A stretch of DNA of 64,000 nucleotides from positions 193 to 64,192 of the forward strand of contig MGDP01000039.1 of NCBI GenBank assembly GCA_001790955.1. The letters are read 5' to 3'. Below the pieces are notes generated by a model. It did not search any database. It had not been told where the DNA came from and saw only the letters and a program-made list of their open reading frames with translations. Origin of the DNA: Candidatus Tectomicrobia bacterium RIFCSPLOWO2_12_FULL_69_37 (GTDB lineage: Bacteria; UBA8248). Below, piece after piece: positions 3,312-42,171 of this stretch. Positions within the stretch are counted from its first letter, which is position 1; every line of letters begins with the position of its first letter. The translations under genes were made by a program, and so were the position numbers.

Positions 3312-3776
3312 ATGTTCGACGGCAAGAAGGTGATCGCCCTGGGGGAGAGGGACGGCATCCCGGGCCCTGTCCTGGCCGAGTGCCTCCAGGCGGCGGGCAC
3401 GGAAGTCGTCTACCAGACGACGGCCTGCTTCGTCTGAACCTCCGCGGGAGCCATGGACCTGGACAACCAGGCCACCATCAAGCAGCTCGTGGATGCGCAC
3501 GGGGCGGAGAACTTGGTGGTGGTGCTGGGGATGAGCGGGGAGGGCGTCCGGATCGCCGCCGAGACGCTCACCACCGGCGACCCCAGCTGGGCCGGGCCCT
3601 TGGCGGGAGTCTCGTTGGGACTCCCGGTGTACCATATCTTGGAGGAGCGGGTCCGCACGCGTCTCCCGGCTGAGATCTACGCCGAGAAGGTGCAGCTCAT
3701 GGAGATGGTGCTCGACGTGGCGCAGATCGAGGACGCGCTCGCCGGGCTGCGCAAGACCCAGGCGAAGCGGAGCTGA
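3312..3776 (+). CDS. grdA: glycine reductase complex selenoprotein A (GrdA), in-frame TGA = Sec at 3435..3437
   Basis: Strong RBS GAGGAGG before ATG 3312. Translation '[61 protein letters not shown]...' matches the canonical GrdA Sec motif CFVUTAAGAMDLENQ. The track ORF 3453..3776 is the in-frame continuation. Confidence 0.9.
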
Positions 3777-3788
3777 GGGGGATCGGCC

Positions 3789-5066
3789 ATGCGGCTCGAA
3801 ATGGGAATCTTCCCGGTCAGGAAGGTCGCCTTCGGGAGCCGGACCGGCTACCGGGACGGCTCCCTCACCGTCAACGCCCAGGAGCTCAAGGAAGTGATGA
3901 TGGCCGAGGGCGGCTTTTTGGACGTGCGCTTCGACCTCGCCCACCCGGGCGAGAGCGTGCGCATCGTCCACAACGTGGACGCTGTCGAGCCCCTCTACAA
4001 GGTGAGCGGCCGCTCGTGCGCCTTCCCGGGGTTCCTGGGGCGCGCCCTGACCGCGGGAGAGGGCCGCACCCACAAGCTCGCCGGGATGTGCATTCTCAGC
4101 ACCACCCGCTACCCCGGCCCCCAGACGGGCATCATGACCTTCCGGGACAGCATCATCGACATGAGCGGGCCCGGCGCCCTCTACTGCGCGACCTCGGAGA
4201 CGGCGAACCTCGTCGCCTGCTACGAGCCCATCCCGACCGCCTCGAACGGCGAGCACGACGCGGCCATCCGGCTCGCCACCTTGCGGGGGGCCTCCTGCCT
4301 GGCCCGGTGCACCGCGGACCTGAAACCCGAGAAGATCGAGGTGTACGAGCTCGGCGAGGTGGGCCCCACCCTGCCCCGCATCGTGTACGTGGACCAGGTG
4401 ATGCACCAGGCGGTGATGGTGGCCACCTACGTCTACGGCAAGGACCTGGACGACTCCCTCCCCACCCTCATCCACCCCAACGAGATGCTGGACGGGGCGG
4501 TAGTCGGGGCGAACTACAAGACCGGCCAGAAGGTGCCGACCTACCTCCACTGCAACAAGCCGGTCCTCCTCGAGCTCTACCGCCGCCACGGCAAGGACGT
4601 GAACTTCGCCGGGGTGATCATCACCCGTGGGCACCGCGACAACCAGGCCCTCAAGGAGCGCTCGGCCCAGTACGTGGCCAAGCTGGCCAAGCTCCTCAAG
4701 GCGGACGGCGCCGTCCTCGCCCACGAGGGGGGGGGCAATTCCTCGGTGGACTACTTCCTGACCGTCCAGGCTCTTGAGCAGGCGGGCGTCAAGGCGGTGC
4801 CCATCATGTACGAGACGGCAGACCCGGGGAGCGGGGACTTCCCCCTCGTCTACACCGTCCCCGAGGCGGACGCCATCGTGAGCAAGGGGCTCCAGGGCCA
4901 GTCGATCGTCCTCCCCGCCGTCGAGCGCGTGATCGGCTCCCCCAAGTTCAAGCCCTACGGCGGGACCCTGGTCGACACGGCTTCGAGCTTCGAGGTGACC
5001 AACGCCGACCTCTACGCCGACGAATGGGGAATGGAGCTCAGCCACTTCACCGGGAAGGACTACTGA
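3789..5066 (+). CDS. grdE: glycine/betaine reductase protein B proprotein (GrdE family)
   Basis: N-terminus MRLEMGIFPVRKVAFG... is typical of GrdE/GrdG/GrdI proproteins. About 425 aa. Placed between grdA and grdB. Confidence 0.85.
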   Translation: MRLEMGIFPVRKVAFGSRTGYRDGSLTVNAQELKEVMMAEGGFLDVRFDLAHPGESVRIVHNVDAVEPLYKVSGRSCAFPGFLGRALTAGEGRTHKLAGMCILSTTRYPGPQTGIMTFRDSIIDMSGPGALYCATSETANLVACYEPIPTASNGEHDAAIRLATLRGASCLARCTADLKPEKIEVYELGEVGPTLPRIVYVDQVMHQAVMVATYVYGKDLDDSLPTLIHPNEMLDGAVVGANYKTGQKVPTYLHCNKPVLLELYRRHGKDVNFAGVIITRGHRDNQALKERSAQYVAKLAKLLKADGAVLAHEGGGNSSVDYFLTVQALEQAGVKAVPIMYETADPGSGDFPLVYTVPEADAIVSKGLQGQSIVLPAVERVIGSPKFKPYGGTLVDTASSFEVTNADLYADEWGMELSHFTGKDY

Positions 5067-5103
5067 GGCCCAGGCGCCCCTGGGCGAGCCAGGAGAGACC
5101 GGA

Positions 5104-6432
5104 ATGCCCACGAACAAGAAGATTCGCGTCGTCCACTACGTCAACCAGTTCTTCGCGGGGGTGGGAGGGGAGGAGAAGGGGGACCATCCCCTGACCTTCA
5201 GGGAGGGCCCCGTGGGCCCCGGCCTCCTGCTCCAGCGCCTGCTGGGGGCGGAGGGGGAGGTGGCCGGCACCCTCTTCTGCGGGGACAACGCCTACGCCGC
5301 CGATCCAGGGGCCGAAGCGGCCGCCCTCGACCACATCGAGCGGCTTGCGCCCGACCTCCTCGTGGCCGGGCCCGCCTTTAACGCGGGCCGCTACGGCCTG
5401 GCCTGCGCCCGCCTCTGCCTCGCCGTGAAGGCGGGCGGCAAGACGGCGGCGGTGACGGGGATGTACCCCGAAAACCCGGGGGTCTCGGCCTGCCGCCGCC
5501 AGGTGCACATCGTCCCCACCGGGGACACCGCCGGGGGGATGGGAGAAGCCCTTCCCAAGATCGTCCGCCTGGGCCTCAAGCTCGCGCGCGGGGAGGAGCT
5601 GGGCCCGGCCCAGGAGGAGGGCTACCTGCCCCGGGGGGTCCGCTACAACGCTTTCGCCGAGGTGCCCGCCGCCCAGCGGGCGGTGGACATGGTGCTCAAG
5701 AAGGTGCGAGGGGAGCCCTTCACCTCGGAGTTCACCTTCCTGGGCTTCGACCGGGTGGCCCCGCCCGCGCCCCTCAAGGGCCTCAAGGGCAAGAAGATCG
5801 CCGTGGTCACCGAGGCGGGGATGGTGCCCCCCGGGAACCCCGACCGCATCCCCGGCTCCCGGGCCTCCACCCATCACTGGAACAAGTACTCCTTCGGGGG
5901 GCGGACGGAGCTCCCCAAGGGCTCCTTCATCTGCATCCACGGGGGCTTCAACACCGTCTTCGTGAACGAGGACCCGGACCGGATGCTCGCCCTGGACGCC
6001 CTCAAGCAGCTCGAGCGGGAGGGCGTCTTCGAGAAGCTCCACGAGGAGTTCCTGAGCACCTGCGGGAACGGCGGCCCCGTCCACGTCATGAAGCAAGTGG
6101 GCCAGGCCATGGCCAAGGAGGCCCGCGCCGCCGGGGTGGAGGGAGTGGTCCTGCCCGCCACCTGAGGGACGGGCACGCGTAGCGGCGCTACGCTGGCGAA
6201 GGAGCTGGAGAGGGAAGGCATCCCCACCGTGCTGGTCACCTGCCTCCCCGACGTGGCGAAGGACGTGGGGGCCAACCGCATCCTCAAGACGCGGGCGGGC
6301 CACTTCCATCATCCCTTCGGGGATCCGAGCCGCCCCGAGGCCTCCGAGCGGCGGTGGCGCCTCGAAGCCACCAAGAAGGCCCTGGAGGTCCTGACCGAGC
6401 CCGTGACGGAGCCCACGGTCTTCGAGTACTAG
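5104..6432 (+). CDS. grdB: glycine/betaine reductase selenoprotein B (GrdB family), in-frame TGA = Sec at 6163..6165
   Basis: N-terminus MPTNKKIRVVHYVNQFFAGVGGEE is canonical GrdB. Track ORFs 5104..6165 and 6229..6432 are in the same frame. Reading through gives '...VLPAT-U-GTGTRSGATLAKELEREGIPTVLVTCLPDVAKDVGANRIL...', matching the GrdB Sec motif (UGTCTRCGAT...). Total 442 aa. Confidence 0.9.
6177..6193 (+). promoter_or_regulatory. candidate bacterial SECIS hairpin for grdB
   Basis: 17-nt perfect hairpin gcgtagc-ggc-gctacgc beginning exactly 11 nt after the UGA. This is the spacing and size of the E. coli fdhF minimal SECIS. Confidence 0.5.
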
Positions 6433-6445
6433 CCCCCCGCAGTAG

Positions 6446-6480
6446 CAAAGGGGGCGGAGGTCCTCCTCCGCCCCTTTGCT
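6446..6480 (+). terminator. GC-rich palindrome downstream of grdB (terminator-like, no T-run)
   Basis: gcaaagggggcggagg-tcct-cctccgcccctttgc, a ~15-bp stem, directly after the grdB stop. It is followed by an AT-rich intergenic region. Confidence 0.45.
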
Positions 6481-6629
6481 CCATCCATAAGATCCGAATA
6501 AGGCAATTTAAATCAATGGGTTAAAAAACATGCCAAAAATTTCCCCTGGATCTCGAATTTCGTCTTTATTTCGTGCTATATTTCGCTTTATATTTGTCTT
6601 CGTGAAATGTCCTCACAGGAGGCTCTGCC

Positions 6630-8171
6630 ATGCTGGCCAAGACGCAGGCGGCGGCGGTTCTCGGGGTGGACGCCCACCCGGTCGAGGTCGAGGTGGACCT
6701 CGCCTCGGGCCTTCCCTACTACTCCACCGTGGGTCTGCCGGACGCCGCCGTGAAGGAAAGCAAGGACCGCATCCGGGCGGCCATCTCGAACACGGGCTTC
6801 ATCTACCCCCTCGGGCGGATCACGGTGAGCCTCTCCCCCGCCGACATGCGGAAGGAGGGGAGCGCCTTCGACCTCCCCATCGCCTTGGGGCTCCTGCGCG
6901 CGAACGGCGCCCTGAACGGGGGCGGGGAGAGGACGCGGGGGCTGATGTTCCTGGGAGAGCTGGCGCTGGACGGCGCCCTCAAGCCCGTGCGCGGGGCGCT
7001 CAACATCGCCGTTCTGGCCAAGAAGCTGGAGATCGAGGGCCTGGTGCTCCCGGCCGAGAACGCTGGAGAAGCGGCCGTAGTGGAAGGGCTCCCCGTCTAT
7101 CCCGTCCGCACCCTGCCCCAGGTGGTGGGCTTCCTGCGGGGGGAGCTCACCATCCCGCCCACGAAGGAAGACCCGGCCTCCCCGGGGAACGCCTCCGGCG
7201 CGTGCGACGACTTCCGGGACATCCGGGGCCAGCACCACGCCAAGCGCGCCCTCGAGGTGGCGGCGGCGGGGGGCCACAACCTCCTCATGATCGGCCCCCC
7301 CGGCAGCGGCAAGAGCATGCTGGCGCGCCGCCTGCCCACCATCCTCCCCCGGCTCACCCTCGAGGAGGCCATCGAGACGAGCCAAGTCTGGAGCGTCCTC
7401 GGGAAGCTCGGGCCGGGGCGCTCGCTCATGGCCGAGCGCCCCTTCCGCGCTCCTCACCACACCATCAGCGACGCCGGGATGGTTGGGGGCGGGACCGTGC
7501 CCCTGCCCGGGGAGGCTTCCCTCGCCCACAACGGGGTGCTCTTCCTGGACGAGCTGCCCGAGTTCCGCAAGAACGTCCTGGAAACCCTGCGGAGCCCGAT
7601 GGAGGAAGGGAAGATCGTCATCAGCCGGGCCCAGGCCAGCCTGGCCTTCCCCGCCCGGTTCATGCTCACGGCGGCAATGAACCCCTGCCCCTGCGGCCAC
7701 CTGGGGGACACCGCGAAGTCATGCTCCTGCACTCCGAAGCTCGTCGAGCGCCACCGCTCGCGCATCTCGGGGCCGCTCCTGGACCGCATCGACATCCACA
7801 TCGAGGTGCCGAGGCTCCCCTGGAAGGAGCTCGCCGAGGAGCCCGAGGGAGAGGGCTCAGAAGCCATCCGCGCCCGGGTCGAGGCCGCCCGCACCAAACA
7901 GCGCGCGCGCTTCACCGGCATCCCGGGCGTCCACTCCAACGCCCACATGGGGGCCGGGCTCATCGGGCGGTTCTGCAAGACGGACGCGGAAGGGAAGCGG
8001 CTCATGCAGCTCGCCGTCCAGCGGCTGGGGCTCTCGGCCCGGGCCTACCACCGGGTGCTGAAGCTGGCGAGGACGATCGCGGATTTGGCGGGAGAGGAGA
8101 GCATCACGCCAGCGCATATCGCGGAGGCGATTCAGTACCGGCAGCTGGACAGGCCGGTGGGGGGGAAGTGA
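6630..8171 (+). CDS. comM: YifB/ComM-family Mg-chelatase-like AAA+ ATPase
   Basis: RBS aggagg. N-terminal Lon-like/ChlI domain, Walker A GPPGSGKS, 'LFLDELPEF', and zinc-ribbon CPCGHLGD...CSC. Confidence 0.9.
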   Translation: MLAKTQAAAVLGVDAHPVEVEVDLASGLPYYSTVGLPDAAVKESKDRIRAAISNTGFIYPLGRITVSLSPADMRKEGSAFDLPIALGLLRANGALNGGGERTRGLMFLGELALDGALKPVRGALNIAVLAKKLEIEGLVLPAENAGEAAVVEGLPVYPVRTLPQVVGFLRGELTIPPTKEDPASPGNASGACDDFRDIRGQHHAKRALEVAAAGGHNLLMIGPPGSGKSMLARRLPTILPRLTLEEAIETSQVWSVLGKLGPGRSLMAERPFRAPHHTISDAGMVGGGTVPLPGEASLAHNGVLFLDELPEFRKNVLETLRSPMEEGKIVISRAQASLAFPARFMLTAAMNPCPCGHLGDTAKSCSCTPKLVERHRSRISGPLLDRIDIHIEVPRLPWKELAEEPEGEGSEAIRARVEAARTKQRARFTGIPGVHSNAHMGAGLIGRFCKTDAEGKRLMQLAVQRLGLSARAYHRVLKLARTIADLAGEESITPAHIAEAIQYRQLDRPVGGK

Positions 8172-8869: not shown

Positions 8870-10144
8870 TCAGGCCGGGTGAGGCGATTCGCCCTCCACA
8901 TGGATGGGCAGGTTGCGCATCGCCCACCGGAACGCGAGCAGCCCTACGGATATGATGCCGACGGTGATAAAGACCTCCGCCCAGTAGGGATAATAGGTCT
9001 CCCACGGGCGGACGATGACCCCGACCACCGCCACATTGAGGCGATTCCAGACGACGCCGGCAATCACCAGGACTGAGGTTCCGAACAGGCCGGCGCGGTT
9101 GCGAATCAACTCAGGGGTCATAAAGAGTACCAACGGGATGACCGCCCCGATGCCCATCTCCATCCACCACGAGACGGCTTGCGGGGTGAGAGCCAGCGCG
9201 TGGGGGACAGCGCCGCGTCCCACCAGGTCGGCCAGCTTCAGGAACAGGTACACCCCCAGCAGATAGGGCATGACCCTGGCCGCCGCGTGGAGCAGGTCGA
9301 GATGCGCTTTGTATCCGAGCGTTCGCTCGGTCACCAATGACTCAAAGATGACCATCGCTGGAGCGACCATCACGGCGGAGAAGAAGAAGAGCAGCGGCAG
9401 GATCGGGGTGTGCCACAAGGCGTGCAACTTGTGGGGCACGATCAAGAACAGCGACCCGAGCGAAGATTGGTGCAGCGTCGACAAGATCACCCCCGCGGCG
9501 ATCAGCAGGATGGACACCTCCGCGTGCCGCGGCATGATCCGGAGCCGAATCAGCCCCTCCCACACCAGCAGCACGGCGACCATGGCCAGCGCCCATTGGG
9601 GCGAATGGGTCATGGCCAGGGTGAACAGCCCGAGGATAAACACGATGAGCCAGGGAACCATCATCCGCCAGAGGGAATGAAGCTTCTCCAGCCGGTATCG
9701 CTCAAAGACCGACGGGAGCATCTCCAGAAACAGAACGAACGTATAGAGCATGACGCACCAGGATACTTCGAACATCGGGGACTCGTGCTGCCAATTGAAC
9801 ACCGGCTTCCAGATGTTCCAGGGGCGTCCCAGGTCGACGATCAGGCCGAAGATGAACAGGAGATACCCCAGGAAGGCCGTCAAGACGGCGGTCCGGGCCA
9901 TGACGTGGAACCTCTGCCCTCCCAGCAGATACACCGTGCCGGCCATCACGAACCCCCCGGCCGCCAGCGCGATCCCCGCGAGGATATCAAGCCCGATCCA
10001 AATGCCCCACGGGTACCCGTCGCTCAAGTTCGTCACGGCGCCGAGCCCCATCACGAACCGGTAGACGATCAGGACAAGTCCCAAGACCGCCAAAAACCAA
10101 ATCACGCTTTGCCCGGAGAGGAGATTCAGCGATTTGGCTTTCAT
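8870..10144 (-). CDS. NrfD/PsrC-family polytopic membrane subunit (quinone-interacting) of formate dehydrogenase
   Basis: 424 aa, about 10 predicted TM helices, NrfD-like composition. 4-nt overlap with the upstream FeS subunit gene. Confidence 0.8.
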   Translation of the reverse strand: MKAKSLNLLSGQSVIWFLAVLGLVLIVYRFVMGLGAVTNLSDGYPWGIWIGLDILAGIALAAGGFVMAGTVYLLGGQRFHVMARTAVLTAFLGYLLFIFGLIVDLGRPWNIWKPVFNWQHESPMFEVSWCVMLYTFVLFLEMLPSVFERYRLEKLHSLWRMMVPWLIVFILGLFTLAMTHSPQWALAMVAVLLVWEGLIRLRIMPRHAEVSILLIAAGVILSTLHQSSLGSLFLIVPHKLHALWHTPILPLLFFFSAVMVAPAMVIFESLVTERTLGYKAHLDLLHAAARVMPYLLGVYLFLKLADLVGRGAVPHALALTPQAVSWWMEMGIGAVIPLVLFMTPELIRNRAGLFGTSVLVIAGVVWNRLNVAVVGVIVRPWETYYPYWAEVFITVGIISVGLLAFRWAMRNLPIHVEGESPHPA

Positions 10145-10950
10145 GATTCACCTCCCGAGGAGGAGCCGTTCTTCTCATCGCGTCCATTTCGGATCCGCCG
10201 CTGGATGACCCACGAAACGGCCCCCAAAGCGACTGCCAGCCCGATCTTGACGTGGGGCACCACCTGCATGGCCGTCTTGGTGTACTCGCGCAGCGAAATC
10301 TTCGGGAGGTCGGTGCGGTAGCCCAGCACCTCGAACGGCACGTTGGACAGGTGAAGCACGCAGGTCCCGCCGACCTCGTCCTTCCCATAGATGTGGTGGA
10401 CGTACCCTCGCGGGTTGCGGTGGATCCGGTTCTCGGCCTCTGCGATGAGATCCTCCCGCTCGCCGAAGACGATGGCGTCCGTCGGGCAGACCTTCGCGCA
10501 GGCCGGCTCCTCCCCCGCCGCCACCCGGTCGGCGCACATGGTGCACTTGGTGATTTTGGGGATGGCCTTGTCCCACTCGAAGCGCGGGACCAGGAACGGG
10601 CAGGCAAGCTGGCAGTAGCGGCAGCCGAGACACCGATCCGGGTCGTAAACGACGGGACCCTCCTTGGTCTTCTGCAACGCGGACACAGGACATGCCGTGG
10701 CGCACGAAGGCTCAATGCAGTGGAAGCACTGAAGATGGCCGAACACCCACTCGAAGCGCCCGTTGGTCTGCGCTTCGTTGTAGGTCACGACCCGCCACGT
10801 CTTCGACGAAAGATCCCGCGGGTTTTGATACCCCTTGGGGGACGCGAAGAAGCGGGTCTTCTCGGCCGGAAGCTCGTTCCACTCCTTGCAGGCCACCTGG
10901 CAGCCCCGGCAGCCGACGCAGCGCGTCACGTCGATGAGGAGCGCTTTCAC
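10141..10950 (-). CDS. fdhB: formate dehydrogenase iron-sulfur subunit (FdnH-like, 4x[4Fe-4S], C-terminal TM anchor)
   Basis: Multiple CxxCxxCxxxCP ferredoxin motifs (CVGCRGCQVAC, CFHCIEPSCATACP, CLGCRYCQLACP, CTMCADR...CAKVCP). C-terminal hydrophobic helix. Overlaps fdhA by 4 nt. Confidence 0.85.
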   Translation of the reverse strand: MKALLIDVTRCVGCRGCQVACKEWNELPAEKTRFFASPKGYQNPRDLSSKTWRVVTYNEAQTNGRFEWVFGHLQCFHCIEPSCATACPVSALQKTKEGPVVYDPDRCLGCRYCQLACPFLVPRFEWDKAIPKITKCTMCADRVAAGEEPACAKVCPTDAIVFGEREDLIAEAENRIHRNPRGYVHHIYGKDEVGGTCVLHLSNVPFEVLGYRTDLPKISLREYTKTAMQVVPHVKIGLAVALGAVSWVIQRRIRNGRDEKNGSSSGGES

Positions 10951-13900
10951 GACGCACCTCCCTTCGCCTTATAGACGTTGCAGAGGAACGCCTTGTACTC
11001 CGGGATCATGGTGTTGGCGTCCCCCACGTGCGGCGTCAGGACGTTCGCGCTGTCGCCCTTGACGATGCCTTGGTAGCCGAAGTGCCAGATAACGCCGACC
11101 TCGTGGACGATCTTCCCGTTGTGCCGGAAGGGCTCGAAGCGGCGCGTCACCAGGGCGTAGCCGCTCATCTTGCCCCGCGCCGTCTCCAGGGTGACGCGGT
11201 CTCCGTTCTGAACGCCCTTCTGCCGGGCGAGGTCCACTCCCATCTCGACGAAGACATCCGGCACCAGCTCCGCCAGCCAGGGCAGGTTGCGCGTCATCGC
11301 CCCGGCCTGCCAGTGCTCGCTCACGCGGTAGGTCGTCCCCACGATCGGGAAGCGGTCGGCGGTCCCGACGGCGTTCATCTCGGGTGCGTCCTTGTGCCAG
11401 AGCTTGATGGCCGGGTTGACCTGCTGCCGCGACATCATGTTCGGCAGCGGGCTCTCCAAGGGCTCATAGTGCTCGGGCAGAGGCCCGTCGTTGAGGTTGC
11501 CAGCGAAGAGCCACGCGTGGCCGTCCGGCTTCATGATGAAGGGATGCTTCTCCCCCGGCGGCCACGGGCCGTCAGGCACGTCGCCCTCCCACTGTTTTTT
11601 CCCGGCGTTCCAGCGGATGACCCACCGCTTGGGGTTCCAGGGCTTGCCGGTGGGGTCGACCGAGGCGCGGTTGTAGAGGATCCGCCGGTTGACCGGCCAG
11701 CACCACGCCCAATCGGGGTAGAGGCCGATCCCGTTCATGGCGTCCCGTTTGCTCCGCCGGGCCATCTTGTTGTCCTTCTTCTCCGGGCCGGCGTAGCTGT
11801 TGCAGTAGAGCCAGTTGCCAGAGCAGGTGGAGCCGTCGTCCTGCAGCAGGGCGAAGCCGGGAACCTGCTCGCCCTTCTTGTACTGTCTGCCGCCGACGGT
11901 CTTCTCCTGGGTGAAGTAGCCGTTGATTTCCTTCGCCACCCGGTGCACGTCGGGCTCCTTGCGGACGTCGACCTCCTCGCCCGTGCCGTAGTCCCAGGCG
12001 AGGCGGGTGATGGGCTCGGGGAAGACGCCGCCCGCCGCGTACTCCTTCTTCACCGCCTTGCACAGGGCGTCCAGGATCCACAGGTCGGACCGGGAGTTCC
12101 CCACCGGATGGACCGCCGCGTAGCGCCACTGCGCCCAGCGGGCGCTGTTCGTGATGCTCCCTTCTTTCTCCACCGAAGACGCCGACGGTAGGAGGAATAT
12201 CTCGGTCTTGATGTCGGCGGGCTTCACGCCCGGGCGCTTCCAGATCGATGCCGTCTCCGTCTCCCAGAGATCGACGGCCACCATCCAATCGAGCTTCTCC
12301 AGCGCCTTGATCTCCTTGTTCGTGTTCGGCCCGCCGACCGCCGGGTTCTGACCGAAGAGCATGAGACCCTTGATCTGGCCTGCATACATCGCCTCGAACA
12401 GCGATATCCACGAGTAGTCGCCGCTGCGCTTGGGGATGTAGCTGAACGCGAAGTCGTTCTCCCGAGCGGCGTGGCCGCCGTACCAGGCTTTGAGCAGCGA
12501 GACGATGTACTTCGGATAGTTACCCCACCAGTTGGCCGATTTCGGGTCGTTCGTCCTGGGTGTGTTGCTCGCCAGGTAGGCCGCGAGCGATTGGTCGGCG
12601 GCGGTGGGCGAGGCCAGGTAGCCCGGCAGGATGTGGAAGAGCAGGGCCATGTCGGTGGAGCCCTGCACGTTGGACTCGCCCCGGAGGGCGTTCACCCCCC
12701 CGCCCGCCAAGCCGACGTTGCCCAGGAGGAGCTGGAGGATCGCGTAGGTCCGGATGTTCTGGGTCCCGTGCGTGTGCTGGGTCGCCCCCATGGCGTAAAG
12801 CCAGGTGCCCACGCGGTCGGGCGCCCAGGTCGAGGTGTAATGGCGGCAGACCTGGAGATAGACATCCCGCGGCGCGCCGGTGATGTTGCACACCGTGTCC
12901 ACGTCATAGCGCTGAAAATGTTTCTTCAACAGCTGGAACGCGCAGCGGGGGTGTTGGAGGGTCATGTCCCGCACCGGCATGCCTTTCCCATCGAGCTCGT
13001 ACGCCCAGTGGGACTTGTCGTAGCTGCGAGACGCCGGGTTGTAGCCCGTGAACAGGCCGTCATCGAATCCGTACTTTTCAGAGATGATGAACGAGGCATT
13101 CGTGTAGTTGAGGACGTAGTCCTTCTGGACGAAATCGTTCTGGAGAGCATAGTTGATCATCCCGCCCACGAAAGCGATGTCGGTGCCGCTACGGAACTTG
13201 CAGTAGACGTCGGCGAAGGAAGAGGTACGGGTGTAGCGCGGATCCGCACTGACGACGATGGCCCCCTTCTCTTTCGCGCGTGTTATCCATTTCGTGGCGA
13301 TGGGATGGTTCTCCGCCGCGTTCGAGCCCATGATCATGATCACGTCGGCGTGGACCATGTCGCTCCAGTGATTGGTCATCGCGCCCCGCCCGAAGGTCGC
13401 CGCCAAACTGGCGACGGTGGAGCTGTGTCATATCCGCGCCTGGTGCTCCAGGTAGGCGACCCCCAGCGCCCGGGCGAGCTTCGAGTAGAGGTAGCACTCC
13501 TCGTTGTCCAGCGCCGCGCCGCCGAGGCACGCGATGCCCTCGGTTCGGTTCACGGTCCTGCCCCCCTCCTCGCGGCGGAAGGTGGCGTCGCGGGTGCGCT
13601 TGATGCGCTTGGCGATCTCCGGGACGGCCCACTCCCAGGTCTTCTCCTCCCAGCGGCTACCCCCCGGGGCCCGGTAGAGGACGCTCCGCAGGCGCCGCTC
13701 GTTCACCGCCACCTGATAGAGGGCCATGCCCTTGGAGCAGAGCGAGCCTTCGTTGATGGGGTGATCGGGGTCGCCTTCGATGCTGACCACCTTCCCGTCC
13801 CTGGCAGAGACGATGAGCCCGCACCCCACCCCGCAGTACGGGCATATGGTCGTCGACTGCTTGGTGCGAACCGTCTTCATCGGGGGTGTTTGGGCGGCGT

Positions 13901-13994
13901 GGGCCCTCCCTTTTTGAGGGCCGAAAAGAGAGACGGCCGTCCCCAGTGCGCTTCCGCCCGTTGCCCCCAAAAAGGTACGCCGCGAAATCTTCAT
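10947..13994 (-). CDS. fdhA: formate dehydrogenase catalytic subunit (FdnG/FdoG-like, molybdopterin, TAT-exported), in-frame TGA = Sec at 13428..13430
   Basis: TAT signal MKISRRTFLGATGG. Fe-S cluster motif CPYCGVGCG. Track ORFs 13428..13994 and 10947..13406 are in frame, separated by TGA plus 7 codons. Read-through gives '...YLEHQARI-U-HSSTVASLAATFGRGAMTNHWSDM...', almost identical to E. coli FdnG 'NQARVUHGPTVASLAPTFGRGAMTNHW'. Total 1015 aa, the same length as FdnG. Confidence 0.9.
13396..13415 (-). promoter_or_regulatory. candidate SECIS hairpin for fdhA
   Basis: Minus-strand mRNA has stem gucgcc / ggcgac with a GU-containing loop, starting about 12 nt after the UGA. Confidence 0.4.
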
Positions 13995-14965: not shown

Positions 14966-15203
14966 GGGCTCTGCCCCCTTCGGGAGGGGCCGGCTCCCTG
15001 AAAACCGCCAAAACCACCCTTGGGAGGAGCAATTTCCTTGCCACGCAGCCCAGCCATGTCCCCCAAGAAAGCGAGCCGCTGCCCGTGGTAAATACCCCAC
15101 GCTCCTGCAACCCGCGCGGGAAGATGAGACAAAAAATCCCTTCCCCGGGACTGAATGCCACATCTCCTTCGACCCCGGGACGAGCGAATTTCTGGTTCTC
15201 TCC

Positions 15204-16921: not shown

Positions 16922-16998
16922 ACGAAGAAAAAGGCCCCTCGTCCAGCGCCTTCTCGAGCCGGACGAGGGGCAAGCAGACCGGGTCCCCCGATAAGCGT

Positions 16999-19037: not shown

Positions 19038-19096
19038 GTGCTACCTCCTTTTTCTTGGGACGGCCCAAAACCGCCCCCGAGAACCCGGCGGATGCC

Positions 19097-20356: not shown

Positions 20357-20388
20357 CCGCCGCCAAGAATTTCCGCGCACCGCAGACC

Positions 20389-23595: not shown

Positions 23596-23642
23596 GGGAC
23601 TTCAGCCGGATTCATTTGGGGACGCCCCAGCCGTAAGGAGAC

Positions 23643-28507: not shown

Positions 28508-29165
28508 CTATTCCGCCGGCCCGGGGAACGTCCGGGGCCAGCTCTCCACGAGGCCGGAGAGATAGCGCACCAGGTCCCCCGCGTCCTGCCGTCGGCTGTC
28601 CTTGGCGCGGTCGATGCTCTCCTGCGCCTCGAGCGGTATCCGGAGGGAGTCCTGAAACCGGTTCCGCATGTTGAAGTAGGTGATCACCATGGTCAGCTCG
28701 ACGAGTTCGGGCCGCGAGAAACGCCGGCTCACCTCCGCGAACACGTCATCCCGCGACTTGGCCGTGTTCCGGGTGACGTGCCCGGCCCAGAGGACTGCGG
28801 CCTTCTCCCGGGGAGAGAGGAGCGGCGAATCCATGTAGCGGTCCGTGCCGATGACCTGGATCTGCTCGTCCGTGATCCCGGCCGCCCGGCCGAGCGCCGT
28901 GTTGTGGGCGAGTCAGTAGTTGCACCCGTTCACCTGGCTCGTCTTGATGACGGCCATCTCCTTGAGCTTCGTCTTCAGGACAGACCCGAGCCCTTCCCGC
29001 ATCAGGGTCACCGTGAAGGGAAGCAGCACCCGCGCGGCGTAGGGCGCGTGGGCCATCACCCGCCAGGAGTTGGGGACCCGCCCCGAGCATCTTCTCGGCG
29101 CTCGCGTAAAAGCGCTTCATACCGCCCCCGGCTTCCTCCTCCGGGACTCCTGGGATTCGGGACAT
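28508..29165 (-). CDS. AhpD/carboxymuconolactone-decarboxylase-family selenoprotein (CxxU motif; Sec TGA at 28913..28915), with an apparent frameshift near the 5' end
   Basis: The minus-strand frame continuous with ORF 28508..28834 reads '...KEMAVIKTSQVNGCNY-U-LAHNTALGRAAGITDEQIQVIGTDRYMDSPLLSPREKAAVLW...'. The TGA sits where AhpD/CMD proteins have the second Cys of CxxC(xxH). The N-terminal 'MSRIPGVPEEEAGGGMKRFYASAEKMLG' lies in a different frame (track ORF 28746..29165), implying a 1-nt indel around 29070..29085. Confidence 0.55.
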
Positions 29166-29207: not shown

Positions 29208-29609
29208 TCACGCCTTGCCCTTCCCTTGCGCCTGCTCGTCCGCGATCCGTTTCAGTGCGTAGAGGCCCTCCATGAGCACGGGGGCGCCCCCGCCGATGCT
29301 CGCCACCTCGAACGCCTCCAGGACTTCCTCCATGGTGGCCCCCAAGCGCAGGGCCTTCTTCGCGTGAGTATAGACCTCGTGCTTCATCCCCTTGAACGCC
29401 AGGATCCCCAGCTCGATCAATTCCCGGGTCTTGGGATCCAGGTGGCGCGGCTCCTCCTTGAAGAAACCCCAATGCATCTGGGCGTACACCTCGAAGTAGT
29501 CGGGGTCCAACTGCGCGCCAAAACCCAGCACGTCATAGACGAAGCCCCGGTCTCGGTGAATCCTCTCGGTGATCCGGCGGACCCGCTCCTCGCGCGTTTC
29601 AGGCGCCAT
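29208..29609 (-). CDS. carboxymuconolactone decarboxylase (CMD) family protein
   Basis: 133-aa C-terminal portion of the track ORF beginning at MAPETREERV. CMD-like helix pattern. Confidence 0.6.
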   Translation of the reverse strand: MAPETREERVRRITERIHRDRGFVYDVLGFGAQLDPDYFEVYAQMHWGFFKEEPRHLDPKTRELIELGILAFKGMKHEVYTHAKKALRLGATMEEVLEAFEVASIGGGAPVLMEGLYALKRIADEQAQGKGKA

Positions 29610-36667: not shown

Positions 36668-37948
36668 ATGCAAGGGCCGGTATTCATTCCGCGGGGAGGG
36701 CACCATCCGATGCGGCGAGTGTTCTGGTTCCCCTTAGCAGCCTTCTTGCTGCTTGCCTGGCCCCAGACGGGTCAAGCCGCGGGCCAGTGCGTGGCGTGCC
36801 ATACCGACGCCGCCAAGCTCAAGGCGCTGGTCCAGGCCCCTGCCGAAACCGCCGAAGAGGAAGGATCGAGCTGAGCGGCCCCCATCCCCCGGTCGGGGGA
36901 GCTCTGGGAGCGGTTCCTCGTGAAGAGCGAGTTCGTGCAGTCGACCCACGGGAAGCTCGGCTGCAGCAATTGCCACGGCGGCGACCCCGCCGCGGCGGAT
37001 AAGGAGAAGGCCCACGCCAAGCGGATCTCCCGCCCTTCCGAGGCGATGGAGAAGCAATGCGGCACCTGCCATGCGGAAACCGTGAAGCTCTACAAGACAT
37101 CCCTCCACTTCACGACCCGCGGCTACGATACGGTCATGAAGGCCAAGAGCGGCGCCAAGTGGCCGGAGGTCCACCCGATCGTGCAGCAGGCCTGCCACAC
37201 CTGCCACGCGAGCTGCGGCGACTGCCACGTGCGCTGGCCCAAGCCGGCCGGAGGCGGGCTCCTGAACGGCCACCTCTTCGTGAAAAAGCCTCCCGCCGAA
37301 TCCACCTGCAACGGCTGTCACAGCGGCCGGGTCAGCGCCGACTATTTCGGCTGGAACACGGACCAGCCGGCCGACGTCCATTGGAAGAAGGCCAAGATGG
37401 ATTGCATGGCCTGCCACCAAGTGAAGGACCTCCACGGCGACGGAACGGCCTATCCTTACCGGCTGGACCGCACCACCCAGCCGCGCTGCGTGGATTGCCA
37501 CCCGCAGGCGGCTCCGGGCAAGTCGCCCCTCTTGGCCCACAACGTCCACGGGGACAAGCTGCAGTGCAACGTCTGCCACTCGGTCAAGTACACCAATTGC
37601 TACGGCTGCCATCTGGGAAAAGGGGCAGAGCCCGAGCTGGACTTCCGCATCGGCCTGAACCAGCGGAAGGACCGTCCTTACGCCTACAACCTCGTCCGCC
37701 ACATCCCTACGACGAGGGAGATGCTGAGCGCCAAGGTGCCCGACGCGCTGCCCAACTACGACGACAACCCCACATGGCTGGCGACTTTCCCGCACAACAT
37801 CCAGCGGATCACGCCCCAGAACAAGACGTGCGACGGCTGCCACGGAAACGAAGGTTTGTTCCTCCTGAAAGAGAACCTCGATCCACGCTATCCGAAGGCC
37901 AATCTCAAGGTGGCGGTCCCCCGGGTGCCGCCGAAACTCACGAAATAA
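36668..37948 (+). CDS. putative 11-heme c-type cytochrome with in-frame TGA (candidate selenocysteine at 36872..36874)
   Basis: RBS AGGAG 9 nt before ATG 36668. Signal peptide (RRVFWFPLAAFLLLAWPQTGQAAG), then heme 1 CVACH, then '...AETAEEEGSS-U-AAPIPRSGELWERFLVKSEF...'. The downstream track ORF 36920..37948 is in the same frame, has ten CxxCH motifs and no signal peptide of its own. The hairpin ccccc-GGUC-ggggg begins exactly 11 nt after the TGA. Confidence 0.55.
36875..36908 (+). promoter_or_regulatory. candidate SECIS element (11-nt spacer plus CCCCC-GGUC-GGGGG hairpin with lower stem CCCA/UGGG)
   Basis: The apical loop GGUC is identical to the fdhF SECIS loop. The spacer length matches the E. 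coli rule. Confidence 0.45.
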
Positions 37949-37961: not shown

Positions 37962-38888
37962 ATGAGCAAGACGAGAGGAACGCAAAGAGGATGGATCCTC
38001 GCACTGGCGCTGTTCGCGATCATCGGGTGGGCAGGGCCCGCCGCGGCGGCGGGCTACGCCCGGCCGGAGCTTCTGATCTCGACCGAGGAGCTGGCGAAGC
38101 TCGCGAGCCAGCCGGGGATTAAGATCGTCGATGTCCGAGCCGCGGACGCCTATAAAGCCGGGCACATCCCGGGGGCGCTCTCCATGCCCCGGCCGTCCAC
38201 CCAGTACACGGCGGGGGGCGTCCCGGCGCTCATGGCGCCCGTCGAGAAGATGGAGGAAATCTTCGGCAAGCTCGGAATCAAGCCCACCGACACCCTGGTC
38301 CTCTATGACGAGTCGGCATCTCGGGAAGTGGCCCGCGTGTTCTGGACGGCCGACGTCCTGGGCCATGCCAAGATCCGGGTCCTGAACGGCGGCATGAGCA
38401 AGTGGGCCAAGGAGAAGCGCACCATCAGCAAGGAAGTCCCCCCGGTCACCGCCGCTGCCTACAAGGCCAAGCCGGACAAGAGCAAGGTCGCGGACGCCAA
38501 GTATGTCCAGGCGAGCATGAAAAAGCCCGCAACCGTGCTCCTGGATTCGCGGAGCGCCCGCGAGTGGACCGGCGCGGTGGCCAGTGGTGGCGTGAAGCGC
38601 GCAGGCAAGATCCCCGGGTCGGTGAACGTTGACTCCGATCTGGTGCTCGCTTCCTCGGGCGGGGTCAAGGTTTTCAAGAGCGCCGACGCCCTCGCCAAGC
38701 TTTTCGCGAAGGCCGGCGTGAGCAAGGACAAGGAGATCGTCATCTACTGCCTGACCGGCGTGCGGGCCTCCCACAATTACCTGGCCCTCAAGCTCCTGGG
38801 CTACAACAACCTCAAGAACTACGATGGATCGATGATCGAATGGGGCAACCGGCCGGAGCTGCCCATGGAGAAGTCCGCGAAGAATTAA
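37962..38888 (+). CDS. periplasmic tandem-rhodanese sulfurtransferase (thiosulfate sulfurtransferase-like)
   Basis: RBS AAGGAG. Signal peptide. Two rhodanese domains. Active-site loop 'CLTGVRA' (CxxGxR) in the C-terminal domain. Confidence 0.85.
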   Translation: MSKTRGTQRGWILALALFAIIGWAGPAAAAGYARPELLISTEELAKLASQPGIKIVDVRAADAYKAGHIPGALSMPRPSTQYTAGGVPALMAPVEKMEEIFGKLGIKPTDTLVLYDESASREVARVFWTADVLGHAKIRVLNGGMSKWAKEKRTISKEVPPVTAAAYKAKPDKSKVADAKYVQASMKKPATVLLDSRSAREWTGAVASGGVKRAGKIPGSVNVDSDLVLASSGGVKVFKSADALAKLFAKAGVSKDKEIVIYCLTGVRASHNYLALKLLGYNNLKNYDGSMIEWGNRPELPMEKSAKN

Positions 38889-38937: not shown

Positions 38938-38977
38938 GCCCCTCAGTTGGCCTTCATGCCCAGCGCTTGAACAACCC

Positions 38978-40332: not shown

Positions 40333-40354
40333 CTGTCTGGTCCGGTGGCTGGAG

Positions 40355-41377
40355 CTAAATCTTGTAAACGCGCCTCGCGTTGCCGGAGAGTATCTTCTCC
40401 TGATCCCCCCTGGACAAGCGGGAGAGGCCGGGAATCTCCGCCGCCCGGCCCAAGAGGCCCACGTCCCAGGGGTAATCCGTCCCGTAGAGGATGGCGTCCG
40501 CGCCGAGCGTCTTCACGGCGAACTCCAGGCAGTCCGCGTTGTGGATGACGGTGTCGTAGTACAGCTTCCCCAGGTAAGCGTCCGGGGCCTTGGCCCCTCG
40601 CACGCGGGTCTCCTCCCGCACCCCGTAGCCGTGCTGCCAGCGCCCCCGGATCCAGGGGGTGAAGCCGCCCAGGTGGGCGAGGACAACCTTGAGCCTCGGG
40701 AACCGGTCGAGCACCCCGCCGAAGATGAGGCAGGCCGCCGCGATGGTGGTGTCGAGCGGGTTGGCGATCAAGTTGTGCATGTAGAAATCCTTCATCCGGT
40801 CCCCGGCCCCGATGATGTCCCCCGGGTGGATGAAGACCGGCACGTCCAGCGACTCCGCCTGGGCCCAGAAGGCGTCCAGCGCCGGGTCGCTCAGGTTGAC
40901 GCCTGCCACGTTCGTGCCGATCTTCACCCCGATGTGGCCCCGCCTCACCGAGCGCTCCAGCTCGGCCGCGGCCGCCCCGGGATCCTGAAGGGGCACGTTG
41001 CACATGCAGTGGAACTTGTCCGGCATCCTCTCCGCCACGGCGGCGATCTCGTCGTTGTACATCGCCGAGATCTCCCGGTTGAGCCCGGCGTCGAGGCCGT
41101 AGAAGGTCATGTTCGTGATCGCGGAGAGGATCTGCCGGTCCACCCCCATGTTCCGCATGTGGGTCAGGCGGAGGTCGAGGTTGATGAGCTCCTCCGGCAG
41201 CCGGTTCCGCATGACCGTCCGCTTGCCGAGGACGGTGATGTTCGCGACGACCTCCTCGCCCCTCTTCCTGCCAGGCTGAACCGTCACGTGCGGGGCGAAA
41301 CGGCCGCTGCGGATCACGCCCAGGCACGTCTCCGGCAGGATATGCGCATGGAAATCGATGATCATGTTTCTCCTCAA
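40355..41377 (-). CDS. amidohydrolase-2 family (ACMSD-like) metal-dependent hydrolase
   Basis: N-terminus 'MIIDFHAHILPE', about 340 aa, TIM-barrel amidohydrolase signature. Confidence 0.75.
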   Translation of the reverse strand: MRRNMIIDFHAHILPETCLGVIRSGRFAPHVTVQPGRKRGEEVVANITVLGKRTVMRNRLPEELINLDLRLTHMRNMGVDRQILSAITNMTFYGLDAGLNREISAMYNDEIAAVAERMPDKFHCMCNVPLQDPGAAAAELERSVRRGHIGVKIGTNVAGVNLSDPALDAFWAQAESLDVPVFIHPGDIIGAGDRMKDFYMHNLIANPLDTTIAAACLIFGGVLDRFPRLKVVLAHLGGFTPWIRGRWQHGYGVREETRVRGAKAPDAYLGKLYYDTVIHNADCLEFAVKTLGADAILYGTDYPWDVGLLGRAAEIPGLSRLSRGDQEKILSGNARRVYKI

Positions 41378-41613
41378 ACTGCGGCGCGCTTCGGAAAGGA
41401 GTCAACCATCCTATCACGGGCTCGTGGAACCAAGGGAGCCGTGCGGCCTCCTTTCCCCGCGCGTCCCAGGCTCCAGGCGAAGACACTCCGCAGGGCGGGA
41501 CGGCCGAATCCCATTGCCGGATCCGCCGGAAGGCCATACCATCGAGGCGGCCCCCAATTGCGGCTGACGCCAGGTGCCTTGTGCCGCCCGGGCAGCCATC
41601 AGGAGATCCCACG

Positions 41614-42171
41614 ATGGAAGAAAAACCCTTGAACCCCTTCGAACAAAGCACCGTCGCCGGCGAGCGCATCACCGACAAGCCGGAGCTGCCCCGCCAGGGG
41701 TTCGCCATGCACCTCGTGGCCGACGCCGAGACCATCGAGGGGGAGGCCCACCTCAAGCTGGGGAAGTCCCGGGGCTTCGAGGTCTACTCGGACGAGCCGC
41801 CGCACATCGGCGGGACCAACAAGTTCCCTCCGCCGATGAGCTACCTCGCCATGGGCATCGGCTTCTGACTGCTCACCCAGGTGGCGCGGTACGCGTCCAT
41901 GATGAAGCTGAAGGTCAAAAAGGCCAGCTGCCACGTGGAGTTCGACTACATGCTTTCCGGGTCGGTCCTCAAAGGCACCGTCAAGACCACTTGGAAGGGG
42001 GTTTCCACCCGCCTCGACATCGACTCGGAGGAGCCCGCCGCGAAGATAGCCGCCCTGGTCCGGAACGCCAAGGGGGGCTGCTTCGCGGAGAACTTGGTGG
42101 TCCAGCAGGTCCCGCTCCACGGCGCGGTCTTCCTCAAAGGCCAGCCGGTCGAACCGAACGAGGCACCCTGA
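41614..42171 (+). CDS. OsmC/Ohr-family peroxiredoxin-like selenoprotein (Sec TGA at 41866..41868 replacing the peroxidatic Cys)
   Basis: RBS aggag 8 nt before ATG 41614. Translation '...DEPPHIGGTNKFPPPMSYLAMGIGF-U-LLTQVARYASMMKL...GGCFAENL...'. The in-frame downstream track ORF 41881..42171 is the continuation. The TGA aligns with the conserved 'LAGC' Cys of OsmC. Confidence 0.75.
41881..41898 (+). promoter_or_regulatory. candidate SECIS hairpin for the OsmC-like gene
   Basis: guggcgcg-GUA-cgcguc stem-loop with G/U-rich apical loop, beginning 12-14 nt after the UGA. Confidence 0.35.

Follow-up and report, generated by a model that had tools for sequence, protein, structure and literature searches.

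The 64-kb stretch of DNA analysed here (the window) belongs to a Candidatus Tectomicrobia genome that was assembled from Rifle aquifer metagenomes and represents an uncultured bacterium. Six of its genes contain an in-frame TGA, at the very places given in a first-pass annotation of the same DNA: 3435 (+), 6163 (+), 13430-13428 (-), 28915-28913 (-), 36872 (+) and 41866 (+). These genes, named as predicted when TGA is read as selenocysteine (Sec), and the neighbours of relevance are:

1827..3266, + strand: grdC (component C, beta subunit), in the same cluster as grdA and grdB
3312..3776, + strand: grdA, selenoprotein A of glycine/sarcosine/betaine reductase; Sec codon 3435-3437, motif CFV-U-T
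3789..5066, + strand: grdE-like, divergent proprotein of component B
5104..6432, + strand: grdB-family selenoprotein B (TIGR01918); Sec codon 6163-6165
8870-10144: NrfD-like subunit, fdhA neighbour
10141-10950: 4Fe-4S subunit, fdhA neighbour
10947..13994, - strand: fdhA, periplasmic formate dehydrogenase alpha subunit with Tat signal; Sec codon 13430-13428 (HQARI-U-HSSTV)
14099-15343: FdhE-like, fdhA neighbour
15204-16121: FdhD, fdhA neighbour
28508..29165, - strand: AhpD/CMD-like selenoprotein gene (CxxU); Sec codon 28915-28913, TGA at the second Cys of CxxC
36668..37948, + strand: undecahaem c-type cytochrome selenoprotein; Sec codon 36872-36874 (EEEGSS-U-AAPIPRSG)
37962..38888, + strand: tandem-rhodanese sulfurtransferase with signal peptide and active-site Cys (CLTGVR), matched twice by PF00581
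41614..42171, + strand: OsmC-related selenoprotein, peroxidase-like; Sec codon 41866-41868 (GIGF-U-LLTQ)

Reading of the six in-frame TGA codons

A six-frame scan of the window for in-frame TGAs flanked on either side by 25 or more open codons returned 408 codons, only 11 of which passed a coding-signature filter. These are the six candidates, the true stop of grdA, where the next gene lies in frame, and four antisense shadows. At the resolution of the scan, that is for TGAs at least 25 codons away from gene ends, the list of six is complete. In all six genes the UGA is aligned with a Cys or Sec of homologues and has coding sequence on both sides, the GC1/GC2/GC3 signature running on across each of the six TGAs, and UGA-Sec decoding at Sec/Cys-aligned positions is the best reading of all six. 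The earlier statement that the positions are family-specific holds to this extent, although the Sec of the cytochrome does not coincide with that of any described family. The same TGAs recur in three other assemblies of the region (two ENA analyses and NCBI) and are therefore not read artefacts. As had also been predicted, gene callers fragment such genes: public gene calls yield pieces of 68 + 342, 47 + 108 and 84 + 90 aa.

Several in-frame TGAs within one window could likewise be taken as a sign that TGA codes for an amino acid such as Trp or Gly throughout the genome, a reassignment known from some uncultured lineages. However, TGA is the commonest true stop in the window. It ends 21 of the 43 confident genes, at positions where the family models end too, and the genetic code is therefore not reassigned; in addition, the residue aligned with an in-frame TGA is in each case Cys or Sec and in none Trp or Gly. 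Given this usage of stop codons, we regard reassignment as effectively refuted.

With UGA thus read as Sec, this residue would replace a redox-active Cys in each of the six genes, and SelB carrying Sec-tRNA(Sec) would be recruited at each of them by a stem-loop starting 10-20 nt past the UGA. Genes for selA, selB, selD and tRNA-Sec do not occur within the 64-kb window, so that the decoding capacity can only be inferred. Relatives of the source genome carry the label Nitrospinota, and Nitrospinota-labelled genomes of phylum UBA8248 rank among the ten richest selenoproteomes in BSepDB. We infer that the source genome is a member of this phylum. The suggestion that the bacterium is selenocysteine-using and selenoprotein-rich fits with this origin, and the lineage agrees with what is known of anaerobes rich in selenoproteins; the richest known selenoproteomes comprise 54-63 genes (PMC13188914; BSepDB).

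[quoted passage not shown] The hairpins originally noted for grdB, the cytochrome (loop GGUC) and the OsmC-related gene are real but constitute weak evidence in DNA of 67% GC. When p is taken as the share of ordinary in-frame positions whose SECIS-model hairpin is at least as good, it amounts to 0.40 for grdA (a weak CCUG/CAGG stem, 3458-3471), 0.07 for grdB (GCGUAGC-GGC-GCUACGC, 6177-6193; 7 bp, loop GGC, -10.8 kcal/mol), 0.034 for fdhA (13398-13416; -13.2 kcal/mol), 0.034 for the AhpD-like gene (28877-28894; 7 bp, loop GGGC), 0.053 for the cytochrome (UCCCCC-GGUC-GGGGGA, 36885-36900) and 0.18 for the OsmC-related gene (GGCGCG-GUA-CGCGUC, 41883-41897; 6 bp, loop GUA). Four sites thus exceed the background modestly (p = 0.03-0.07), and grdA and the OsmC-related gene are unremarkable. 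Taken together, the six sites are enriched in SECIS-shaped hairpins (Fisher's combined p = 0.0028); the folding energy of the 52 nt downstream of the six TGAs is not enriched (Fisher p = 0.40). Singly, the hairpins are weak evidence; homology carries the weight, joined in the case of the cytochrome by covariation.

Five of the six genes belong, as judged from their sequences, to known selenoprotein families, namely GrdA, GrdB-family, FdhA, AhpD/CMD-like CxxU and OsmC-related proteins: they fit by curated model or Cys alignment, with Sec at the motif catalogued (PMC13188914). The read-through translation of grdA is matched by PF04723 over positions 1-147 of 147 and by the equivalog NF040748 in one stretch across the TGA (204 bits, cutoff 130). 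Its neighbour grdC reaches 589 bits with NF040746 (cutoff 450). The grdB-family product is matched by TIGR01918 across the TGA (422 bits, 1-431 of 431) and stays below the cutoffs of the specific equivalogs GrdB (399/602 bits), GrdF (438/800) and GrdH (371/775). The grdE-like protein is a clear PF09338 member (E = 4e-113), whose best NCBIfam matches are GrdG (273 bits, cutoff 780) and then FarE (145 bits). Unlike catalogued Grd systems, the GrdB/GrdE pair in the window therefore lies below every substrate-specific cutoff; grdD or thioredoxin genes were not found near the cluster. FdhA matches TIGR01553 over its full length (1313 bits, cutoff 814, 1-1009 of 1009), its TGA aligning to the Sec position (Mo/W ligand) in 1h0h and in the FdhA structure from D. 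vulgaris. The OsmC-related protein meets NF041052, the model for OsmC-related (seleno)proteins (163 bits, cutoff 95, 3-144 of 144), and its TGA aligns to the Cys of 3cje, with Sec at the position of the first catalytic Cys.

The AhpD-like protein meets TIGR00778 (41 bits, cutoff 28), and its NGCNY-U aligns with the second Cys of NGCAYC in PA0269. The position of this TGA is as first reported, but the reading frame is also broken upstream by a +1 frameshift, one extra G in a GGGG run near 29081-29084, 38 codons before the TGA. The in-frame part comprises 28508-29059, and the homologous N-terminus (ATG at 29165) lies in another frame, so the window copy has no intact frame from the conserved N-terminus. 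Because of this frameshift, which is the same in assemblies L081, L082 and L084, the copy may be a pseudogene. Its relatives, on the other hand, possess an intact N-terminus of 83-87 aa followed by the TGA and carry C-x-Y-U, and databases contain full-length Cys forms as well as many C-terminal fragments cut at the TGA.

Density of Sec genes in the window

The density of such genes had been called exceptional. Five independent Sec loci in 39 kb indeed give a density about 7-9-fold the average for the richest selenoproteomes known, with a Poisson P (at least five) of about 1e-3 per window; an operon with six selenoprotein genes has, however, been described before (PMC13188914). The same figures, together with the precedent of multi-selenoprotein operons in that review, are what would speak for a functional selenium or selenoprotein island, co-regulated or acquired together by horizontal transfer. 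Against an island, the six genes form five unlinked transcription units, situated on both strands and parted by unrelated transporters, dehydrogenases and respiratory genes. Genes for selenium handling (selD, selA, selB, yedF and the like) are missing from the window, and its GC content is even throughout (0.63-0.71). Moreover, the cytochrome loci of relatives lack other Sec genes in the immediate downstream ORF, as do the short flanks of the relatives' AhpD-like loci. An island is consequently improbable in our view, and the density would rather reflect a large genome-wide selenoproteome combined with local chance.

We consider it highly probable that the situation as a whole is explained by six genuine UGA-Sec genes in five units, comprising members of known families and a cytochrome for which a function can be proposed, at a density owed to a large selenoproteome and local chance. 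While five of the genes are ordinary representatives of selenoprotein families already catalogued, the point of interest is the cytochrome, which has a much higher haem count than MccSep, is unrelated to it in sequence and occurs in hundreds of species-level genomes.

The undecahaem cytochrome

The cytochrome starts with a signal peptide and a first haem-binding motif (haem 1, CVACH), followed by the Sec and then by ten further CxxCH motifs. Its TGA aligns at, or at most one column from, a Cys of full-length homologues. At least 568 relatives are present among GTDB species genomes. Among the best 80 related loci, the TGA is kept in 78, distributed over about ten phylum-level labels and embedded in the motif EG(E/V)G-U-(G/A)G. 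Most of these 80 loci carry Anaerolineae or other Chloroflexota labels; the others include Methylomirabilota, Nitrospirota, Nitrospinota, Desulfobacterota, Actinomycetota and Tectomicrobia. In nine diverse read-through cytochromes the number of CxxCH motifs is always 11, and a signal peptide or lipobox is present in every one.

In the family, a hairpin is situated 12-13 nt past the TGA; 95.6% of its cells are paired, and in 34 cells both sides have changed. At pair 25-37, 38 sequences have CG and 21 have GC; at pair 27-35, UA (49 sequences) alternates with CG (10). None of 500 shuffles reached the observed covariation score, and slid controls were paired in at most 56% of cells. The SECIS hairpin is therefore strongly supported by covariation for the cytochrome, the only one of the six genes for which this is the case.

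It could be argued that some of the TGAs are true stops and that the pieces are separate small genes or decayed pseudogenes, mainly with regard to the cytochrome (68-aa and 342-aa pieces) and the frameshifted AhpD-like gene. Public annotation does present the pieces as separate ORFs, the frameshift is found in all assemblies, and the hairpins are not significant individually. Yet the 342-aa piece of the cytochrome has no signal peptide; signal peptide and haem 1 reside on the upstream piece. Attachment of c-type haem requires export. The conservation of TGA, frame and hairpin in 78 of 80 loci, with compensatory changes, also speaks against true stops, as does the fact that the Cys forms of the cytochrome are contiguous. 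The AhpD-like relatives are intact across the TGA, which limits the pseudogene option to the window copy. Termination at these codons thus appears quite unlikely, and we adhere to decoding of the UGA as Sec.

A few family members lack both Sec and Cys at this position (L034 with GTG at the aligned position, P0058 with an alignment gap beside GEGWG), so that Sec is not strictly required for folding. In the structure model of the cytochrome, the Sec/Cys loop has a pLDDT below 50. The NCBIfam selenoprotein models do not match the protein, nor does any NCBIfam family come near its cutoff. Besides full-length Cys forms, databases contain many fragments truncated at the TGA. The public records examined present the gene as two pieces divided at the UGA, under the name "hypothetical protein" or, in the case of JGI, "sulfurtransferase". 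The cytochrome represents a widespread family that is absent as a selenoprotein from current catalogues and is normally mis-called as two ORFs, and its recognition would correct many annotations.

Relation to known multihaem systems and proposed sulfur chemistry

A close parallel in design is MccSep/ExtKL. MccSep, a five-haem Sec polysulfide reductase of Geobacter sulfurreducens, was identified only in 2026 as the sulfur reductase that had been missing in Geobacter (PMC13510729), and its gene cluster also encodes the rhodanese-like ExtH (PMC5877670). MccSep and the window protein are both exported multihaem c-type cytochromes with a single UGA-Sec that is closely followed by a SECIS-like stem-loop, both have in the past been divided into two ORFs, both families include Sec as well as Cys forms, and a rhodanese-like protein is encoded close by, ExtH there and a tandem rhodanese here. 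MccSep, however, has five haems, and its Sec325 lies in a C-terminal Ig-like domain (PDG-U-PTP), whereas the window cytochrome has 11 CxxCH motifs and a Sec about 25 residues past haem 1, in the family motif given above. Membership in MccSep/ExtKL was rejected on account of these 11 rather than five motifs, the N-terminal Sec and the lack of a match to NF040886 (window protein at E <= 0.01, four relatives at E <= 1).

Some members of TIGR04315, the tetrathionate reductase family octahaem cytochromes, are annotated as selenoproteins (PMC13188914); the window cytochrome scores 13 bits with this model (cutoff 375) and was not assigned to it. The sequence of the window cytochrome itself matches no solved chain of the PDB copy searched. 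The family profile matches octahaem tetrathionate reductase (OTR, 1sp3) at E = 1.3e-6. OTR is likewise an extracytoplasmic enzyme with several haems, eight as opposed to 11, and its substrates are sulfur and nitrogen oxyanions. In a weak HMM alignment, haems 1-2 of OTR fall on haems 3-4 of the family, which would make haem 1 and the Sec segment an N-terminal addition. A further candidate, the GSU2204 family CXXCH (seleno)proteins (NF041027), gave no match to the cytochrome. A separate MtrB/PioB gene in the window reaches 56 bits with NF041027, the cutoff being 350.

The rhodanese gene starts 14 nt past the stop codon of the cytochrome gene. Its product scores 69 bits with the ExtH model, below the cutoff. 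A rhodanese domain is encoded in the next ORF at 40 of 63 related cytochrome loci, about a third being without it; loci L001 and L002 have the rhodanese beside the cytochrome as well, and cytochrome-rhodanese fusions exist (P0086). The rhodanese is a probable partner of the cytochrome.

The proposal of sulfur chemistry draws on the parallel with MccSep, the polysulfide reductase whose gene cluster includes the rhodanese-like ExtH. By this analogy, the most likely activity of the cytochrome, together with the adjoining rhodanese, is extracytoplasmic and directed at sulfane sulfur or a similar chalcogen substrate, for instance polysulfide, thiosulfate, tetrathionate or possibly selenite. Attack on the S-S (or Se) bond would fall to the Sec, with the haem chain delivering or withdrawing electrons. 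The full proposal, a new and widespread family of multihaem selenoenzymes that stands apart from MccSep/ExtKL, GSU2204 and octahaem tetrathionate reductase and works with a rhodanese in the extracytoplasmic redox conversion of sulfane sulfur or selenium compounds, is put forward tentatively, and we rate its chances at somewhat below even.

The cytochrome offers a testable candidate for sulfur/selenium redox chemistry in Anaerolineae and other uncultured groups. If this reading is true, abundant bacteria of the subsurface and of sludge would gain a sulfur- or selenium-cycling activity that current annotation conceals because the gene is split at the UGA. Cultured carriers of the gene are Thermanaerothrix daxensis (L039) and T. 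solaris (L012).

In-frame TGA codons and downstream hairpins

Read-through translation confirmed an in-frame TGA codon in each of the six genes for which the first-pass annotation had proposed selenocysteine (Sec) insertion, at exactly the positions it had put forward.

In-frame TGA codons located by read-through translation, each with the fraction of ordinary in-frame positions carrying an equal or better hairpin
3435, + strand: grdA; 0.40
6163, + strand: grdB-family gene; 0.07
13430-13428, - strand: fdhA; 0.034
28915-28913, - strand: AhpD/CMD-like gene; 0.034
36872, + strand: multihaem cytochrome; 0.053
41866, + strand: OsmC-like gene; 0.18

The GC content of the window is 63-71%. A six-frame scan that required at least 25 open codons on either side of a TGA as well as the coding pattern of the genome (GC1 ~0.65, GC2 ~0.45, GC3 ~0.9) retained 11 of 408 TGA sites, namely the six candidates, one true grdA stop, after which the next gene continues in frame, and four antisense shadows. 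The five sites other than the candidates, at 3774, 13369, 17156, 41277 and 49606, were rejected on these grounds. The list of six Sec genes is complete for TGA codons located at least 25 codons from gene ends. A genome-wide reassignment of TGA as a sense codon was rejected on the basis of stop codon usage, because TGA terminates 21 of the 43 confident genes in the window.

The hairpins following the UGA codons, originally taken as evidence of SECIS geometry, were scored under bSECIS constraints (a 3-9 nt loop with G in its first two positions, at a distance of 16-37 nt from the UGA; quoted in PMC13188914) against a background of 4,301 ordinary in-frame positions from the window's own genes. 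For the six hairpins, Fisher's combined p is 0.0028. In plain minimum free energy, the 52-nt stretches that follow the six UGA codons show no enrichment over ordinary coding positions (Fisher p = 0.40), and the argument that these regions are more structured than background was discarded on that account. The hairpins first described are real, and jointly they are better placed than chance, but in DNA of 67% GC they do not decide the matter by themselves. With this refinement and a second one, a frameshift in the AhpD-like copy, the initial observation is confirmed and its interpretation as a selenoprotein-rich organism is supported. Five of the six genes are ordinary members of known selenoprotein families; it is the cytochrome and its rhodanese partner that are worth following up.

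An undecahaem selenocytochrome linked to rhodanese

In the cytochrome gene (36668..37948, + strand), UGA is recoded as Sec at a conserved site and a conserved SECIS element follows; the protein has an export signal and eleven haem motifs, and the linkage of its gene to rhodanese is likewise conserved. The signal peptide and haem motif 1 (CVACH) are encoded upstream of the TGA, and ten more CxxCH motifs follow downstream; read as separate open reading frames, the large piece is left without an export signal. Of the 813 homologues returned by a protein search, the best 120 are, with few exceptions, 340-380 aa long and cover about 83% of the query, because these proteins are cut at the TGA. Eight of the 120 are full length, seven of them with Cys at or beside the TGA column. 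Among GTDB species genomes at least 568 relatives were found, and in 78 of the best 80 loci, the ones examined, an in-frame TGA lies in the motif EG(E/V)G-U-(G/A)G. One further locus, labelled Thermotogae, has TGT (Cys) and one has neither TGA nor a Cys codon. Anaerolineae and other Chloroflexota make up the majority of the labels in these 80 loci, which also include Methylomirabilota/Rokubacteria, Nitrospirota, Nitrospinota, Desulfobacterota, Actinomycetota and Bacilli. Two of the loci, L039 and L012, belong to Thermanaerothrix daxensis GNS-1 and T. solaris. In a set of nine diverse read-through proteins, the CxxCH count is 11 without exception, and every protein has either a signal peptide or a lipobox.

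In this family the hairpin is a conserved element of 6 bp, lying 12-13 nt after the UGA and occurring in the compensatory variants GGCUCC/GGAGCC, GCCUCC/GGAGGC and CCCCC/GGGGG. Pairing is preserved in 95.6% of the alignment cells, and 34 cells are changed on both sides. None of 500 column shuffles reached the observed score, and sliding the hairpin partner by 1-3 columns lowered pairing to 56% or less. The compensatory changes are non-synonymous on both arms, which argues for selection on RNA structure.

Two family members carry neither Sec nor Cys at the conserved site. In the homologue P0058 there is an alignment gap at the Sec column beside GEGWG, which makes Trp a candidate for the site (its codon TGG differs from TGA by one base); the genomic locus L034 is without the motif and has GTG where the Sec codon aligns. 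Both may be natural variants that have lost Sec, or else the product of sequencing errors. In the predicted structure of P0070, a Cys-form homologue, confidence is low over the first 80 residues, the Cys loop among them.

The gene following the cytochrome in the window encodes a tandem rhodanese of 308 aa with its own signal peptide. A rhodanese domain was found in the next open reading frame at 40 of 63 loci tested and also downstream in the loci L001 and L002, and cytochrome-rhodanese fusion proteins exist (homologue P0086). The form of the partner varies. Immediately downstream of the Sec cytochrome, Anaerolineae encode a protein with several rhodanese domains that is about 570-596 aa long (best Pfam E = 7e-121; loci L012, L015, L020-L024, L030, L032, L035-L051 and others, at about 5200-7050), loci of the Methylomirabilota type have just one rhodanese, about 147 aa long, and four loci have a 4Fe-4S dicluster protein in the place of the rhodanese.

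Three selenoprotein families related to cytochromes appear in a 2026 review of prokaryotic selenoproteomes: ExtKL (NF040886), GSU2204 (NF041027) and octahaem tetrathionate reductase, OTR (TIGR04315) (PMC13188914). The window cytochrome and four diverse relatives reached none of these models, the best TIGR04315 score being 13 bits versus a cutoff of 375, and no other NCBIfam model came near its cutoff for these five proteins. The architecture also differs from that of MccSep/ExtKL, the polysulfide reductase of Geobacter sulfurreducens characterized in 2026, a five-haem protein whose Sec325 lies in a C-terminal domain (PMC13510729). A single-sequence search matched no solved chain to the window cytochrome, NCBI records call its fragments "hypothetical protein", and a full-text literature search yielded no description of such a cytochrome, which does not prove that the literature as a whole contains none. 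We conclude that, with respect to the libraries searched, the protein represents a distinct, uncatalogued Sec-containing branch of multihaem OTR/NrfA-like enzymes.

By analogy with MccSep, whose gene cluster is shared with the rhodanese-like protein ExtH, and with the OTR-like fold, Sec would act as a nucleophile on a sulfane-sulfur or other chalcogen substrate. The rhodanese would deliver or buffer this substrate, and the haem chain would carry the electrons.

Members of established selenoprotein families

GrdA matches its NCBIfam equivalog with 204 bits (cutoff 130) in a single stretch that spans the TGA, with the motif CFV-U-T, and GrdC also exceeds its equivalog cutoff (589 versus 450 bits). 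The GrdB-like protein matches the selenoprotein-B subfamily model TIGR01918 from end to end (422 bits) and stays under the glycine, sarcosine and betaine equivalog cutoffs. Its partner, the grdE-like proprotein, is likewise divergent: GrdG scores 273 bits versus a cutoff of 780, and the fluoroacetate reductase subunit FarE is second best with 145 bits. The B-component pair as a whole is below every substrate-specific NCBIfam cutoff. The cluster (1827-6432) is non-canonical in its order of grdC, grdA, divergent grdE-like and divergent grdB-like genes, and neither grdD nor a thioredoxin gene lies adjacent to it. In the grdB-like gene Sec is followed by G-T-G-T-R-S (U-G-T-G-T-R-S), a stretch devoid of cysteines.

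FdhA, a formate dehydrogenase alpha subunit exported through the Tat pathway, scores 1313 bits with TIGR01553. In alignments, the U of its HQARI-U-HS motif coincides with the Sec position of both the D. gigas enzyme (1h0h) and the D. vulgaris FdhA structure. Its gene is accompanied by those for a 4Fe-4S subunit, an NrfD-like subunit, FdhE-like and FdhD proteins. The OsmC-like protein scores above the curated "OsmC-related (seleno)protein" cutoff (163 versus 95 bits), and its TGA aligns to the Cys of 3cje.

The TGA of the AhpD-like gene corresponds to the second of the two Cys in the CxxC motif of PA0269. A database search gave full-length Cys forms of 212-245 aa along with about 100 C-terminal fragments of 108-135 aa, a pattern typical of families whose genes are split at TGA. 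In four related contigs the N-terminal part, 83-87 aa long, is intact and leads into C-x-Y-U and the remainder of the protein; the hairpin loop is often GGUC. In the window copy the homologous N-terminus, MSRIPGVPEEEAGGGMKRFYASAEKMLG (ATG 29165), is in a different frame from the remainder of the gene. What separates the two frames is an additional G within a run of four (GGGG) near 29081-29084 (- strand, span 29056-29165), 38 codons upstream of the TGA. Deletion of one G from ctc-gggg-cgg restores perfect alignment to the relatives, and the frameshift sequence is identical in three assemblies. The copy may be a recent pseudogene, may be expressed through a +1 slip on GGG-G, or may start at GTG 29059 and so keep the CMD core. 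The Sec assignment stands at the level of the family; the window copy itself may or may not be functional. A second, Cys-free CMD-family gene of 133 aa (29208-29609, - strand) adjoins the selenoprotein gene. In the related contigs L085-L088 one or two CMD paralogues likewise flank the Sec copy, which suggests a conserved CMD pair or triplet.

Density of Sec genes and neighbouring haem proteins

By exact-protein look-up, the window maps to NCBI contig MGDO01000106.1 of GCA_001790935.1, for which NCBI gives the organism as Candidatus Tectomicrobia bacterium and the sample names indicate the Rifle aquifer study. Near-identical contigs (99.8-100% identity) occur in other ENA assemblies. Here, too, the genes are split: those for the AhpD-like protein, the cytochrome and the OsmC-like protein in L081, the latter two in L083, and the AhpD-like and cytochrome genes in L084. 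selA, selB and selD were not found within the 64-kb window; ARAGORN detected no tRNA gene in it, hence no tRNA-Sec, and an Rfam scan matched no family.

The richest reported bacterial selenoproteomes comprise 54-63 genes (PMC13188914; BSepDB), that is about 0.7-0.9 Sec genes per 64 kb if genomes of 4.5-6 Mb are assumed. Six Sec genes in five loci amount to a 7-9-fold local excess over this mean, with a Poisson probability of about 1e-3 per window for at least five loci and some 70-90 such windows per genome. Such an excess could be taken for a selenium island. The genes are, however, found on both strands with unrelated genes between them, and selenium-metabolism genes are absent from the window; for these reasons we read the excess as a local chance accumulation in a Sec-rich genome.

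An apparent gene gap at 19040-20389 was rejected, as an intact octahaem cytochrome without TGA is encoded there. Its surroundings are as follows.

Haem and Rieske proteins around the octahaem cytochrome
~19100-20350, - strand: octahaem c-type cytochrome, intact, C-terminal membrane helix
20389-21480, - strand: cytochrome b, adjoining the octahaem cytochrome
21477-22085, - strand: Rieske protein
17487-19037: EB_dh-domain haem protein, upstream of the octahaem cytochrome
16469-17194: monohaem cytochrome c, upstream of the octahaem cytochrome

Together with the upstream haem proteins, the region ~19100-22085 (- strand) looks like an unusual Rieske/cytochrome b respiratory module. At 22501-25835 a DmsE-family decahaem cytochrome (TIGR03508, 242 bits) precedes an outer-membrane barrel of the MtrB/PioB type (TIGR03509, 344 bits) that resembles the GSU2204 (seleno)protein family only weakly and has no in-frame TGA. 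This porin-cytochrome pair suggests extracellular electron transfer in a bacterium labelled Tectomicrobia.
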